Source: Vicinamibacterales bacterium (GTDB lineage Bacteria > Acidobacteriota > Vicinamibacteria > Vicinamibacterales > UBA8438). Taken from it: a stretch of 64,000 bases of DNA. The DNA lies in NCBI GenBank assembly GCA_965222265.1, contig CBDCTP010000003.1, positions 3,710,841 to 3,774,840 on the forward strand, read 5' to 3'. The notes under the pieces were generated by a model. That model worked only from the letters and a program-made list of their open reading frames with translations. It made no database searches and was not told the origin of the DNA. Below are positions 27,641-36,318 of this stretch, in pieces. The translations under genes were made by a program, and so were the position numbers. Position 1 is the first letter of the stretch, and each line of letters opens with the position of its first letter.

Positions 27641-29098
27641 GTGCGAGCCAGGCTGTGCGCGACGGTAACGGGCCGAACGATGGCGGAGCTGCGGGCGCGC
27701 CGCGACGGGACGGACGGGGCGGACCTGGTCGAGCTGCGCCTCGATCAGGTGCGCGACCCGGATGTCGCCGCCGCGCTCGCGGGCCGGCGCACCCCCGTGG
27801 TGGTGACCTGCCGGCCCGCCTGGGAGGGAGGCGGCTTCCGCGGCTCCGAGGAGGAGCGCCGCGGCCTGCTCGAGCGGGCGCTGGAGCTCGGCGCCGACTA
27901 CGTCGATCTGGAATGGCGGGCCGGACTGGACGACCTGATTCGGGCCCGGCGCGGGCGGAACGTCGTCCTGTCGACGCATGATTTCGAGCGGATGCCCGGC
28001 GACCTCGCCGACCGCTACCGGGCCCTGCGGGCGACCGGCGCCGAGGTCGTGAAGATCGCCGCCCGGGCGCGCAGCCTGACCGAGACCCTGGCCCTGCTGG
28101 AGGTCGGCGCCGGCGAGCCGGGCCGCGTGCTGGTCGCGATGGGGCCGGCGGGCACGGCGTCCCGCGTGCTGCCCGACCGCTTCGGGTCGGCCTGGACCTA
28201 CGCCGGCGACGGCGTCGCCCCGGGTCAGATCGCCCTGCGCCGCATGCTCGACGAGTTCCGGGTCCGCTCGGTCTCGGACTCGACACGGCTGTACGGCGTG
28301 CTCGGTGCGCCGGTAGGGCACTCGCTGTCGCCCGCGATGCACAACGCCGCCTTCGCCGCCGCCGGGTGCGATGCCATCTACCTGCCCCTGGAGGCGGCGA
28401 GCGCGGACGACTTCTGGACGTTCGCGCGGGCGCTGAGGCTGCGCGGCGCGAGCGTGACGGCGCCCTTCAAGGAGGCCGTTCTGCCGGGCCTGGCCGCGAC
28501 GGACGCGCTGGTGCGTCAGGTCGGCGCCGCCAACACCCTGCGGATCGGCGAGCGCGGGTGGGAGGGTATCAACACGGACGTGCCGGGCTTTCTGGAGCCG
28601 CTGGCCGGCCGCATGGCGCTGCAGGGCAGCCGTGCGACCGTGCTCGGCGCCGGCGGCGCGGCGCGCGGCGTGGCGGTGGCGCTCGACGGCGCGGGGGCGC
28701 AGATCACGGTCTGCGCGCGCAACGCCGAGCGCGCCGCCGGCGTGGCGCGGCTGGTCGGCGGCAGCGCCCGCGGGCTGCCGCCGGCGGCCGGCTCGTGGGA
28801 CCTGCTCGTCAACACGACGCCGGTCGGCACGGCCCCCGGCGTCGGGGACAGCCCGCTGCCCGGGGGACCGTTCGACGGCCGCCTGGTGTACGACCTGGTC
28901 TACAACCCGGCCACGACCCGGTTGCTGGCGGACGCGTCGGCCGCCGGATGCGGCATCCTCGGCGGGCTGCCGATGCTGGTGGCCCAGGCCGTCAGGCAGT
29001 TCGAATGGTGGACGGGCAAGGCCGCGCCGCGCGACGCGTTCGCGGCGGCGGCGCGGCGGCGGCTGGCCGCAGCGGAAGACCAGGAGTCTGCGCCGTAG
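27641..29098 (+). CDS. aroDE: Bifunctional 3-dehydroquinate dehydratase (type I) / shikimate 5-dehydrogenase
   Basis: 485 aa. The N-terminal half is AroD-like (LVELRLDQV..., VVLSTHDF..., VKIAA). The C-terminal half is AroE-like (LYGVLGAPVGHSLSPAMHNAAF, VTAPFKEAV, GAANTL, INTDVPGF, VLGAGGAARGVAVAL, LVNTTPVG). The last codons, QESAP*, lie inside repeat copy C. Confidence 0.9.
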   Translation: MRARLCATVTGRTMAELRARRDGTDGADLVELRLDQVRDPDVAAALAGRRTPVVVTCRPAWEGGGFRGSEEERRGLLERALELGADYVDLEWRAGLDDLIRARRGRNVVLSTHDFERMPGDLADRYRALRATGAEVVKIAARARSLTETLALLEVGAGEPGRVLVAMGPAGTASRVLPDRFGSAWTYAGDGVAPGQIALRRMLDEFRVRSVSDSTRLYGVLGAPVGHSLSPAMHNAAFAAAGCDAIYLPLEAASADDFWTFARALRLRGASVTAPFKEAVLPGLAATDALVRQVGAANTLRIGERGWEGINTDVPGFLEPLAGRMALQGSRATVLGAGGAARGVAVALDGAGAQITVCARNAERAAGVARLVGGSARGLPPAAGSWDLLVNTTPVGTAPGVGDSPLPGGPFDGRLVYDLVYNPATTRLLADASAAGCGILGGLPMLVAQAVRQFEWWTGKAAPRDAFAAAARRRLAAAEDQESAP

Positions 29099-29214
29099 AA
29101 CCGGTGCAGACTCCGCAAGGCGCGCACGGCGCGCCTCGGCGGGAGCGGCGCGGGGCGCAGGGGTCCCCGCAAGTGGACGCCGGGGGTTCGGGGCAAAGCC
29201 CCGTCTGAGTAAAG
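29081..29214 (+). repeat. GC-rich multi-hairpin repeat, copy C (inside the operon, between aroDE and trpE)
   Basis: Same family. The aroDE stop TAG (29096-29098) lies in the hairpin-1 loop GCCGTAGAACCGGT. The element's right end abuts trpE ATG 29215. Confidence 0.9.
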
Positions 29215-30729
29215 ATGATGCACGACACGTCGTTCGACGAGTTTCGGGAGCGCGCACGCGACAGCACGTTCGTGCCGATCTGCAAGGAGGTGATGGCCGA
29301 TCTGCTGACGCCCGTGTCGGCGTTCCTCAAGGTCGCCGAGCATGCCGACAACGCCTTCCTGCTGGAGAGCGTCGAAGGGGGCGAGCGGCTGGCACGCTAC
29401 TCGTTTCTGGGCAAGGACCCGTTCATGGTGCTGCGGGCCCGCGACGGGCGCACGGTCATCGAGCGTGGCGCCGAGCGCGAGGAGCGCGCGGAGCCGTTCA
29501 TCGACACGCTGCGCGAGGTGATGGGGCGCTGCCGGTCGCCGTGGGTGCCCGGGCTGCCCCGGTTCACCGGCGGGGCCGTCGGTTTTCTGGGCTACGAGGC
29601 GGCCGGCTGGTTCGAGCCGTCCCTCGCGCGCGCCTGGGCGGAGCACGGCAAGACCGCCGAGGCCGGACGCGAGCTGGCCGCCTTCATGCTGTTCGACACG
29701 ATTCTCGCGTTCGACCACGTGAAGCACCGGATTCTGATCATCGCCAACGCCGCGGTCGGCGACGGGGGCGATCTGCGGGGCCACTACGACTTCGCGCAGA
29801 CCCGGATCCGGTTCCTCGAGCGCGAGCTGCGGCGCAGCCTGTCCGAGCGCGACGCCACGCCGGCCGACGGCTTCGAGGTGCGGTCGAACACAACGCGCGA
29901 GGCGTTCGAGGAGAGCGTGCGGACCGCGAAGGAGTACATCCGCCGGGGCGACATCTTTCAGGTGGTGCTCTCGCAACGGTTCGAAACCGACGTGACGGTC
30001 GATCCGTTCACCGTGTACCGAACCCTGCGATACGTGAACCCGTCGCCGTACATGTACTTCATCCGGATGGGCTCGCGCGTCCTCGTCGGGTCGTCGCCGG
30101 AAATGCTCGTGCGCGCGGAAGGGACGCGCGTCGAGACCCACCCGATAGCCGGCACGCGGCCACGAGGGCCTACCGAGGCCGAGGATGCGCGGTTGGCCGC
30201 GGAGCTGCTGCAGGACGAGAAGGAACGGGCGGAGCACGTCATGCTGGTGGATCTGGGGCGCAACGATCTGGGGCGCGTCTGCAAGTTCGGGTCGGTGCGG
30301 GTGCCCACCTACGTCACGCTCGAGCGCTACTCCCACGTCATGCACCTGGTCTCGCGCGTGGAGGGTGAGCTGACTGCCGGCCAGGACCGTCTCGACGCGC
30401 TGGCCGCCTGCTTTCCGGCGGGCACGGTCTCCGGCGCGCCCAAGATCCGGGCCATGGAGATCGTCGCGGAGCTCGAGCCGACCACGCGCGGCCCGTACGC
30501 CGGCGCCATCGGATACCTCGACTTCGCCGGGCACCTGGACTGCTGCATCACGATCCGGACCATCCTCATCGAAGGCGGCAAGGCCTACGTCCAGGCCGGC
30601 GCCGGGATCGTCGCCGACTCGCGCCCGGCCGCCGAGTTCAAGGAGACCTGCGACAAGGCGTCGGCGTTGCTGCGCGCGCTCGAGATGGCCCAGCGCGGCC
30701 GCGGGCCGACCAGCATGGGAGTGAGCTGA
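29215..30729 (+). CDS. trpE: Anthranilate synthase component I
   Basis: 504 aa. Contains LLESVEGGERLARYSF, NPSPYMYF, HPIAGTRPRG, DEKERAEHVMLVDLGRND and GAPKIRAMEII-like motifs. Confidence 0.95.
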   Translation: MMHDTSFDEFRERARDSTFVPICKEVMADLLTPVSAFLKVAEHADNAFLLESVEGGERLARYSFLGKDPFMVLRARDGRTVIERGAEREERAEPFIDTLREVMGRCRSPWVPGLPRFTGGAVGFLGYEAAGWFEPSLARAWAEHGKTAEAGRELAAFMLFDTILAFDHVKHRILIIANAAVGDGGDLRGHYDFAQTRIRFLERELRRSLSERDATPADGFEVRSNTTREAFEESVRTAKEYIRRGDIFQVVLSQRFETDVTVDPFTVYRTLRYVNPSPYMYFIRMGSRVLVGSSPEMLVRAEGTRVETHPIAGTRPRGPTEAEDARLAAELLQDEKERAEHVMLVDLGRNDLGRVCKFGSVRVPTYVTLERYSHVMHLVSRVEGELTAGQDRLDALAACFPAGTVSGAPKIRAMEIVAELEPTTRGPYAGAIGYLDFAGHLDCCITIRTILIEGGKAYVQAGAGIVADSRPAAEFKETCDKASALLRALEMAQRGRGPTSMGVS

Positions 30730-35848: not shown

Positions 35849-36201
35849 CCGACAAGCCGAAGGATCCGGCGGACGACCAGGACAGCGCGACGGCGGACGC
35901 GGCGGGGCAGATGCGCCAGTTTCGGGAGCGCATCGACCGGCTGGACGCCGAGATCGTCCGGTTGTTGAACGCTCGCGCGGAATGCGCCCTGGCGCTCGGC
36001 CGGCTCAAGGAGGCGGTCGGTCTGGACACCTACCAGCCGGACCGGGAGCTTGCGGTGCTCGCGCACGCGCGGGCGACGAACGACGGGCCGCTCGATGCCG
36101 GCGCCATCACGCGCCTGTTCGAGCGCATCATCGACGAGAACCGCCGGCTCGAGCGGCTGGCGGAGTGCAAGGACACGCCCTCGCAGGAGTCTGCGCCGTA
36201 G
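35845..36201 (+). CDS. Chorismate mutase (AroQ class)
   Basis: Start ATG 35845 overlaps the trpA stop (ATGA); the track offers 35815. FRERIDRLDAEIVRLLNARAECALALGRLK and RELAVLAHAR...ITRLFERIIDENRRLE match the CM_2 helices. The C-terminal QESAP* is encoded by repeat copy D. Confidence 0.85.
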   Translation: MTDKPKDPADDQDSATADAAGQMRQFRERIDRLDAEIVRLLNARAECALALGRLKEAVGLDTYQPDRELAVLAHARATNDGPLDAGAITRLFERIIDENRRLERLAECKDTPSQESAP

Positions 36202-36318
36202 AAGGTGCAGACTCCGCAAGGCGCGCACAGCGCGCCTCGGCGGGAGCGGCGCGGGGCGCAGGGGTCCGCGCAAGCGGACGCCGGGGGTGCGGGGCGCAGC
36301 CCCGTTTGATTGAAGCTA
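36184..36318 (+). repeat. GC-rich multi-hairpin repeat, copy D (inside the operon, between chorismate mutase and DAHP synthase)
   Basis: Same family. The stop TAG 36199-36201 lies in the hairpin-1 loop GCCGTAGAAGGT. Hairpin 3 is perfect here (GTCCGC GCAA GCGGAC). Confidence 0.9.

Follow-up and report, generated by a model that had tools for sequence, protein, structure and literature searches.

In a 64,000-nucleotide stretch of a Vicinamibacterales genome (GenBank assembly GCA_965222265.1, contig CBDCTP010000003.1, positions 3,710,841 to 3,774,840; hereafter the window), two unrelated enzymes of one aromatic biosynthesis operon, AroDE (27641-29098) and chorismate mutase (CM; 35845-36201), end in the same pentapeptide, QESAP, as translated from their open reading frames (ORFs). 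The two proteins appear to end alike because a transposon remnant that targets the palindrome CTAG, often on TAG stop codons, sits on both gene ends, and QESAP is best read as the translated end of that transposon. The remnant, a 31-bp palindrome (hairpin 1), forms the left part of two copies of a ~135-bp repeat, copy A (29081-29214) and copy B (36184-36318), 95% and 97% identical, respectively, to the family consensus. Each copy would be a composite of two selfish repeats, a MITE (miniature inverted-repeat transposable element) derived from an insertion sequence (IS) of the IS1182 family and an unrelated palindromic core. Taken as a whole, this account, in which composite selfish repeats target CTAG and the tails are their by-products, is very probably the right explanation.

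The DNA and its translation bear out the initial annotation of this stretch, which had attributed both tails to the left end of a repeat copy. AroDE finishes with GAA GAC CAG GAG TCT GCG CCG TAG (29075-29098; protein ...AAEDQESAP) and CM with CCC TCG CAG GAG TCT GCG CCG TAG (36178-36201; protein ...DTPSQESAP). Pfam identified AroDE as DHquinase_I plus shikimate dehydrogenase and CM as CM_2, with the last domain closing before the tail in each case (SDH_C, 31/31, at residue 472 of 485; CM_2, 79/80 covered, at residue 113 of 128). The stop codon had further been placed in the loop of hairpin 1, and RNA folding indeed puts UAG 29096-29098 and UAG 36199-36201 in the loop of a 12- to 13-bp hairpin. 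Orthologues without the element, whose C termini the annotation had proposed to compare, end in ...KDTHS, ...KDPGS, ...GDPGEAG or ...EDQDGAA and never in QESAP. The same tail recurs on an enolase, LpxD, BCCP, GT2, HAD, a Mo-oxidoreductase, a DUF1592 protein and an epoxide hydrolase, which according to Pfam are real, unrelated genes with domains that end before the tail.

Judged by its sequence, hairpin 1 is a 31-bp mini-MITE of an IS1182-family IS, and its mobilization by the transposase of such an IS is predicted. It is noncoding and consists of an 18-nt left terminal inverted repeat (TIR) and a 13-nt right TIR placed back to back. In lower-GC metagenome contigs the hairpin-1 18-mer, GGAGTCTGCGCCGTAGAA, runs on into unique sequence, and in L136, L137 and L175 (L-numbers denote loci of relatives compared with the window, L098 to L217 being metagenome hairpin-1 loci, and P-numbers denote orthologous proteins) a complete ~1.53- to 1.56-kb IS was found, with GGAGTCTGCGCCGTAGAA at its start, the reverse complement at its end and flanks of the form cTA/TAg. 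The transposase, of ~445 aa, scored 367.6 bits against NF033551 (IS1182 family; cut-off 270) and matched Pfam DUF772, DDE_Tnp_1 and DDE_Tnp_1_6. A parent of the IS630/Tc1 type, which had been guessed from the CTAG/TA flanks, was ruled out by this family assignment. Homologues of ~1.6 kb (63% identity) with the same ends and cTA/TAg flanks are present in two Vicinamibacterales genomes (L016, 5119-6723; L044, 2257-3859); all five full-length IS copies have these flanks. The hairpin-1 arms are the 18-nt TIR of the IS in L136, L137 and L175 and agree at 17 of 18 nt with that of L044; the left TIR of L016 agrees at 14 of 18. The inverted repeats of the L016 and L044 full-length IS carry CCGCAGAA, which has no TAG, and the mini-MITEs mostly CCGTAGAA, so that the stop in the hairpin loop would belong to the MITE lineage or to other IS subfamilies and not to every parent. 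Two further assignments were tried and rejected: TIRs spanning the whole 135-bp unit, since its left and right ends do not match and only hairpin 1 is a TIR pair, and an integron attC site, since inspection of the consensus reveals neither the R' nor the R'' core site (RYYYAAC ... GTTRRRY) and the repeats lie in a conserved biosynthetic operon instead of an array of cassettes.

The choice of target is sufficient to set the reading frame. Neither the transposon origin of hairpin 1 nor this dependence of the frame on CTAG figured in the initial annotation. CTAG is ~8-fold depleted (51 sites in the 145 kb of the window plus L094 to L097), and among the 45 free sites, 14 (31%) are stop codons on either strand and 5 lie inside coding sequence; 35% of the element copies lie on stops. 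Because CTAG is rare and about a third of its free sites are TAG stops, a CTAG-targeting element would often come to lie on a stop, always in the same register. Genes were called by a heuristic based on GC content at third codon positions (GC3), which is ~0.9 for real genes here. Among the hairpin-1 copies in the window and the listed genome loci (at least 89), 16 of 55 were reached by a GC3-supported ORF, all 16 in the same frame, and 15 of these ORFs stop at the loop TAG with QESAP-like tails. The tails listed are QESAP (10 times, including the window's aroDE and CM), QKPAP, QESAR, QEPAP, WESAP, QGSAP and RESAP, which add up to 16 against the 15 counted. A metagenome scan with the 18-mer yielded 112 independent sites; 75 of them begin with the triplet TAG, which follows a C in 72 cases, and 21 begin with CAG. 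Here 36 of the 37 ORF-associated copies share one frame (p = 1.7e-16); in 27 of these the ORF ends with TAG, the opening triplet of the element, and in 9 it continues to QESAP, PESAP or EESAP. Of the 53 copies that abut genes overall, 52 share a single frame, a result for which the depletion of CTAG and the 31% share of stop codons among its free sites suffice alone. TAG makes up 37 of 96 stops (39%) in the GC3-called genes of the window plus L094 to L097, a high proportion for a 70% GC genome (the window has 70.5% GC).

The proposed mechanism starts from a parent IS and a mini-MITE that would both insert into the palindrome CTAG, with TA on each side (C-TA...TA-G). TA together with the element's first G would rebuild TAG, leaving the gene unharmed. 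A later T-to-C change would turn this TAG into CAG, often matched by an A-to-G change on the other flank so that the stem stays paired, and translation would then run five codons into the inverted repeat (CAG GAG TCT GCG CCG) as far as the loop TAG, giving QESAP. TA is the commonest right flank, and the flanking dinucleotides co-vary (TA/TA, 36; TA/TG, 12; CA/TG, 9; CA/TA, 1; Fisher p = 2e-4), as expected if the stem runs through the T of the stop codon and pairing is kept via a T·G intermediate. TAG-type and CAG-type copies lie on gene ends equally often (36% versus 33%), which gives no indication that selection favors or disfavors the extension.

Comparison with relatives shows what happened at each of the two enzymes, for which the initial annotation had left insertion into the 3' end and its replacement as alternatives. 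At the CM/DAHP synthase junction only insertion applies. The empty site of L090 and L091 reads CTCG TAG GAGGTTGCAGGACCC ATG, and the window reads CTCG CAG (hairpin 1 plus core) TA(T) GGAGGTTGCAGAACCT ATG; in longer form, L090 continues CTCG TAG GAGGTTGCAG and the window CTCG CAG GAGTC...GAAGC TAT GGAGGTTGCAG. The element sits precisely at the native TAG, now CAG, and the nearest tail-less CM orthologues (P0123, P0128, P0131 and P0133) terminate exactly at the position of the Q, so that CM gained five residues and nothing was replaced. Other relatives carry different arrangements at this junction: hairpin 1 plus a different module, X (see below), followed by the intact native TAG GAGG in L095; hairpin 1 plus an internally deleted core in L097; a decayed copy past an intact TAG in L094; and, in L096, the core only, inserted ~7 nt before the stop and causing a 28-aa read-through (...GAHSAPRRERRGAQGSPQADAGGSGRSPV, then stop). 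This CM of L096 (10316-10426; P0125, as also in P0124 and P0132) runs for 28 residues through the core (...QGAHSAPRRERRGAQGSPQADAGGSGRSPV), its stop being the TGA of the core right end.

For AroDE, replacement is what the alignment indicates. Pristine aroDE ends read GAC CCG GGC GAG GCA GGA TGATG in L218 and GAC CAG GAC GGG GCA GCA TGATG in L219, with L094 equivalent, and the window reads GAC CAG GAG TCT GCG CCG TAG...GTCTGAGTAAA GATGATGCAC; ~13 nt, the last five native codons, were exchanged for five element codons, with the microhomology GACCAGGA. A further candidate for a pristine end, P0004/L092 (...AAGD), was discarded, its TGA lying within a 17-nt remnant of the element's right end. By analogy, the exchange may represent the stem-loop- or target-replacing mode described for IS1272. 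The aroDE/trpE site of L220 is filled as in the window; between L220 1804-1858 and window 29081-29138 the hairpin-1 stem shows a compensatory G:C to A:T change (GGAATC...GATTCC) in which GAG to GAA is synonymous, and the protein still ends in QESAP. Deletion fossils occupy the same junction in other relatives, namely 28 nt in L096 (3343-3370), still encoding PESAP and the loop TAG, and a 17-nt right-end remnant supplying TGA in L097 (3359-3375) and L092 (2179-2195). In these fossils the element is nearly gone and the stops it brought remain in use.

A third orthologous site lies downstream of the operon, where a JAB-domain protein ends in QESAP in L095 (12870-12910) and L096 (12885-12925), through AAC CAG GAG TCT GCC CCG TAG. 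The same gene has an empty C/TAG stop in L094 (12895-12905; GAC TAG CAG) and, in the window, a TGA stop (38773-38775) with a native hairpin spacer and no element. The sites are thus polymorphic, the CM junction being empty in L090 and filled in the window, L095 and L097, and the JAB stop empty in L094 and the window and filled in L095 and L096. As the species compared at these junctions are ~92-95% identical to the window in DNA, turnover of the element must be fast.

The window contains seven loci of the family (Table 1). The 18-mer matches it 7 times at up to 3 mismatches against 0.09 expected, and a 52-mer from the core 6 times against 0 expected. The repeat is modular, hairpin 1 (consensus positions 1-33) being followed by a ~100-nt core of three further hairpins; column-wise identity of the core over 84 copies is 86%. 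Nine species representatives from the Vicinamibacterales or Vicinamibacteraceae together contain at least 89 stretches with an exact match to a core 29-mer. The core forms a palindromic repeat of its own, unrelated to hairpin 1, and joins hairpins on their 3' side: it does not derive from the IS interior, is present in 0 of the 120 metagenome hairpin-1 loci, and is found alone, behind other hairpins and in tandem arrays (~95- or 116-nt spacing; 156-nt period in L096). Between co-directional genes, copies are oriented 21 sense versus 17 antisense, and a further 35 lie between convergent and 13 between divergent genes; the elements prefer gene 3' ends. Core right ends adjoin a start codon in 44 cases, a convergent stop in 42 and another unit in 59, counts that take only genes within 40 nt because start calls near right ends over-call ATGs inside the element.

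Table 1. Features of the aromatic operon and repeat-family loci in the window
Feature	Position	Strand	Remarks
Trp leader peptide ORF (MISGRALRYARFGYATASCGWWWRYVFSVPAGGADM, stop) and attenuator terminator	27439-27624	+	Context, outside the repeat
aroDE (type I dehydroquinase fused to shikimate dehydrogenase)	27641-29098	+	Last 5 codons and stop (29081-29098) repeat-encoded
Copy A hairpin 1, IS1182-family TIR pair (putative mini-MITE)	29081-29114	+	CAG GAG TCT GCG CCG TAG; stem 29083-29095/29102-29114; loop TAG 29096-29098
Copy A core (HP2, HP3, HP4, right end GTCTGAGTAAAG)	29115-29214	+	Adjoins trpE ATG 29215; native GATGATGCAC stop/start region kept at right edge
trpE (anthranilate synthase component I)	29215-30729	+	Start overlaps aroDE stop (TGATG) in element-free relatives
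Chorismate mutase (CM_2, 118 aa from ATG 35845)	35845-36201	+	Last 5 codons and stop (36184-36201) repeat-encoded; native stop position is CAG 36184-36186
Copy B hairpin 1 (putative IS1182-family TIR pair)	36184-36215	+	Stop TAG 36199-36201 in loop
Copy B core, ending ...GTTTGATTGAAGC	36216-36316	+	
Displaced native junction	36317-36335	+	TA(T), remnant of old TAG stop; GGAGG 36320-36324, native Shine-Dalgarno; then 11-nt spacer
DAHP synthase (FXD + DAHP_synth_1)	36336-37385	+	
Family copy, loop-deleted hairpin 1 + core	18835-18961	+	8 nt past TAG of upstream + gene; terminal CTAG 18958-18961 holds stop of convergent gene 18958-20397 (-)
Family copy, hairpin 1 + core	21710-21846	+	6 nt past C/TAG stop (21701-21703) of GSDH gene 19889-21703
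Family copy, TAG-type hairpin 1 + core	39308-39442	-	Between divergent genes; TAG not used as stop
Two tandem core units without hairpin 1	43049-43245	+	Antisense between amidase (41302-43020, -) and ftsK (43248-45557, -); adjoins ftsK stop
Family copy, TAG-type hairpin 1 + core, 100% identical to consensus	59074-59209	-	Between convergent genes; terminal CTAG 59074-59077 holds TAG of FAD-oxidase gene 57548-59077 (+)

Several observations on the modules themselves deserve mention. The core was always preceded by some hairpin, whether hairpin 1, GCGCCGGCGCAGCCGGCGC or GGGGCCACC...GGTGGCCCC; its density is ~1 per 3-10 kb, and one run of 29 nt is invariant across nine species. Tandem core arrays occur in the window (43049-43245), L077 (4138-4720), L020 (5449-5735), L095 (12916-13196) and L096 (12931-13331). 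Module X (..AGGGTTGGTTGGGC..GGAGCCG.AGGCGACGATTG.CGGGC-TA) follows hairpin 1 in most copies from outside the Vicinamibacterales, also as arrays of hairpin 1 plus X with an 85-nt period; it was seen at L095 10373-10420, L082 365-530, L097 12868-12910 and most of the metagenome loci L098 to L217. In the window copy that starts at 18835 (+), the loop-deleted hairpin 1 is GGAGTCTGCGCCGCAGACTCC, and a half-duplicate, CAGGAGAC, stands before it, directly after the TAG of the upstream gene (18820-18860).

The operon in which copies A and B reside runs aroDE, trpE, trpG, trpD, trpC, trpF, trpB, trpA, CM, DAHP synthase and prephenate dehydrogenase. All genes but the last were confirmed by Pfam on window ORFs; prephenate dehydrogenase is assigned from Pfam matches on syntenic loci, the window ORF tested at its place (37528-38337) having given no match. 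Upstream, a leader ORF (27439-27549) with three tandem Trp codons (WWW) is followed by a terminator (27585-27624) made of a 15-bp hairpin (27585-27617) and a T-run, and the whole operon appears to sit behind this Trp attenuator. With leader and terminator in place, it is confirmed that the two elements constitute the entire intercistronic spacers at two places within an aro-trp operon under Trp attenuation. Their right ends had been said to adjoin the next start codons, which is correct for the trpE ATG at 29215. For DAHP synthase, the start that stands is 36336 and not the alternative, 36318: Pfam FXD begins at residue 1 there, a conserved GGAGG lies at 36320-36324, and the orthologue in the element-free L090 uses the same ATG, the layout of 36317-36335 being identical to the empty L090 site (TAGGAGGTTGCAGGACCC-ATG). 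The extra T in TA(T)GGAGG (36317-36320) creates an ATG at 36318 in frame with DAHP synthase (MEVAEP-), where L097 has GTG. This ATG is probably an annotation trap, Shine-Dalgarno spacing and the Pfam domain start both favoring 36336. The main physiological effect would be that two cistron pairs that once overlapped or adjoined now stand 116 to 134 nt of stable hairpins apart, without transcription termination.

Strongly structured spacers in such an operon raise the question of whether these repeats are selected intercistronic RNA modules, in the manner of repetitive extragenic palindromic (REP) sequences, bacterial interspersed mosaic elements (BIMEs) or Correia elements, whose hairpins stabilize mRNA, create processing sites or uncouple aroDE, trp and the CM-DAHP synthase-prephenate dehydrogenase segment from the attenuator, with the loop stop letting the terminating ribosome melt the structure. 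The two copies are indeed predicted to fold into highly stable structures (-80 and -85 kcal/mol; z = -4.4 and -4.7), the named core hairpins are 98% paired across 84 copies with a few compensatory changes, and the flanks co-vary such that the stem passes through the stop codon. Purine-rich right ends directly precede start codons at 44 of ~112 terminal right ends, and the same junctions are occupied in several species. However, the antisense strands fold equally well or better, the compensatory changes are confined to 3 pairs, which means that the hairpins cannot separate DNA-level from RNA-level constraint, and an RNAalifold consensus, which gave a different structure without covariation because the copies are too uniform, was set aside. 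An intrinsic terminator scan of 27000-40000 found none inside 29081-29214 or 36184-36335, the attenuator (27585-27624) being the only strong site, and Rfam 15 at the gathering threshold gave no match in the whole window, copy A at E <= 1 giving only a chance match (P6, 11 bits, E = 0.51); a tRNA/tmRNA gene search found none. The orientation counts show no bias and most copies lie between convergent genes, the native Shine-Dalgarno of the DAHP synthase gene was displaced rather than replaced, and close relatives have empty sites, other modules or short fossils (17-28 nt in sister species) at the same junctions. The proposal of internal terminators is thus not supported, neither copy having a U-tract terminator, and uncoupling from the Trp attenuator draws no support from folds that both strands form, from balanced orientation or from such junctions. 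Since the repeat lacks a U-tract terminator, shows no preferred orientation and turns over rapidly, we see no support for a regulatory role, and selected RNA modules seem to us an unlikely reading. We conclude that the repeats are selfish, DNA-level elements and that the regulatory ideas are without positive support here; the tails would be passive by-products with little effect on the enzymes.

Selection could also be invoked for the frame alone or for the tail. In the former case insertion would be random in frame and position, and purifying selection would keep only the short-tail frame, since read-through in either of the other two would run on for ~45 codons. No stop interrupts frames 1 and 2 anywhere in the element (the DAHP synthase frame is open from 35823), and long read-throughs do exist where the core alone inserted, as in the CM of L096, P0124 and P0132 with their 28 additional residues. 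Yet random insertion would truncate C termini variably, whereas 27 of 37 metagenome genes stop at the element's first triplet, the native stop, and CM orthologues end exactly at the junction; moreover, C precedes TAG in 72 of 75 sites, the parent IS has the same CTA/TAG flanks in noncoding contexts, and the stop share of free CTAG sites already predicts the observed 35%. The exact coincidence with stop codons and the CTAG census rule out an account of the frame by selection only, and random insertion is accordingly very improbable. In the latter case QESAP would be a functional C-terminal tag, a degradation, localization or regulatory signal recruited onto enzymes, as its identical occurrence on at least 10 unrelated proteins across species might suggest. 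Against this, the tail simply translates the inverted repeat of a transposon, whose sequence is equally conserved in noncoding copies, the variants WESAP, RESAP, QGSAP, QEPAP, QKPAP, QESAR and QESAS follow nucleotide decay, close orthologues lack the tail, and a CAG-type copy is no likelier than a TAG-type one to lie on a gene. Such a tag is, in our opinion, scarcely credible.

Selfish composite repeats that target CTAG remain our preferred explanation, and a number of points weigh against it. The empty CM site reads G-TAG where C-TAG would be expected, and an extra T in copy B (TATGGAGG) is unexplained; neither TA nor CTAG occurs at the pristine aroDE junction, so copy A arrived by a noncanonical route. 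The gene calls rest on the GC3 heuristic, with Pfam confirming 8 of the 10 checked, and the metagenome set was chosen with an 18-mer that itself contains the loop TAG. Instead of a later mutation, the CA...TG pairing may just as well reflect a subfamily with CA/TG ends whose insertion abolishes the stop, and TA being self-complementary, a TA duplication and an outermost base pair of the inverted repeat are not separable. Finally, the neutrality of the tails and the absence of an RNA-level role are the parts that we infer, and the few compensatory hairpin changes together with the element-borne stops kept in fossils show that structures and stops are at least maintained. A more adaptive extension of the same idea, tentative and rather doubtful as we see it, is a safe-harbor strategy: the rebuilt TAG and an in-frame backup TAG five codons on would permit cheap colonization of gene ends even in essential operons and seed C-terminal extensions in many proteins and taxa, the hairpin may then offer the core a landing pad, and the density of the core with its invariant 29-nt run could reflect a DNA or RNA function used by the host.

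The elements share features with several known systems. Like IS-derived MITEs, hairpin 1 has the TIRs of a coding-competent IS, no coding capacity, the parent's CTA/TAG flanks and many dispersed copies whose presence is polymorphic in close relatives. IS1182-family members are reported to target palindromes (PMC5678879), and IS1272, of this family, to target inverted repeats, replacing them without target duplication (Wan et al. 2017, PMC5678879); a palindromic target preference is common to both cases, and the short aroDE replacement resembles the target-replacing mode of IS1272. The element described here differs in being 31 bp, REP-sized and made of just two TIRs, and its target is not a long stem-loop but the 4-bp palindrome CTAG, with TA at either side. 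Small repeats that extend gene 3' ends in frame include ERIC and related elements (Delihas 2007), the pneumococcal BOX, RUP and SPRITE (Croucher 2011) and the Bordetella BRE (Hot 2011), all covered by a review (Delihas 2011, PMC3184786). These too are intergenic palindromic repeats that are read in frame and alter C termini, and the modular build and tandem arrays seen here are BOX- or BIME-like; in contrast, the frame here is set by the target stop codon and is not fortuitous, only 5 residues are added and the stop is carried in the repeat. Rickettsia palindromic elements (Ogata et al. 2000), according to PMC10969869, insert internally and add ~50 residues. They are likewise selfish palindromic DNA translated in a consistent frame within housekeeping proteins, whereas the present element occupies the stop codon and either extends the protein by 5 residues or exchanges that many.

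REP/BIME and Correia sequences resemble the present repeats as dense (one per several kb), GC-rich palindromes at gene 3' ends and in operons and as composite mosaics, but hairpin 1 comes from the TIRs of a DDE transposon and not from a RAYT substrate, and the core has no orientation bias. The Correia elements of Neisseria duplicate TA, and REP and Correia sequences act at the RNA level through mRNA stabilization, RNase III sites and promoters. The mycobacterial MIRU, said to go back to Supply et al. in 1997, are reportedly co-oriented with their operon and carry small coupling ORFs. They, too, lie in operon spacers, sometimes in tandem, overlapping the upstream stop and adjoining the downstream start; the repeats described here face either way without bias, and the gap between the stop and the next start is not spanned by any ORF. 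The literature searched held no description of such elements homing to TAG stop codons. Already documented are small repeats that extend 3' ends when read in frame (PMC3184786 and PMC10969869) and the palindrome targeting of the IS1182 family (PMC5678879). New are the 31-bp TIR-pair family in Acidobacteria, the CTAG/stop register with its rebuilt and backup stops, and the associated dense core.

These results have practical consequences for annotation: in Vicinamibacterales and other high-GC metagenome-assembled genomes, tails resembling QESAP, Arg/Gly-rich tails of 28 aa and additional upstream starts like ATG 36318 are artifacts of repeats, not conserved protein features. For transposon biology, they indicate that a 4-bp palindromic target that contains a stop and is depleted in the genome suffices to gather insertions at stop codons in a fixed frame, target choice thereby mimicking selection. 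Dense, fast-turnover repeats of this kind also offer presence/absence markers for comparative genomics of a poorly cultured soil and sediment lineage. Within the Trp-attenuated aromatic supra-operon, the two elements mark where translational coupling was broken. The common C-terminal pentapeptide of unrelated enzymes is thereby given a simple, testable mechanism, as a clear, if ordinary, example of how selfish DNA remodels the ends of genes.

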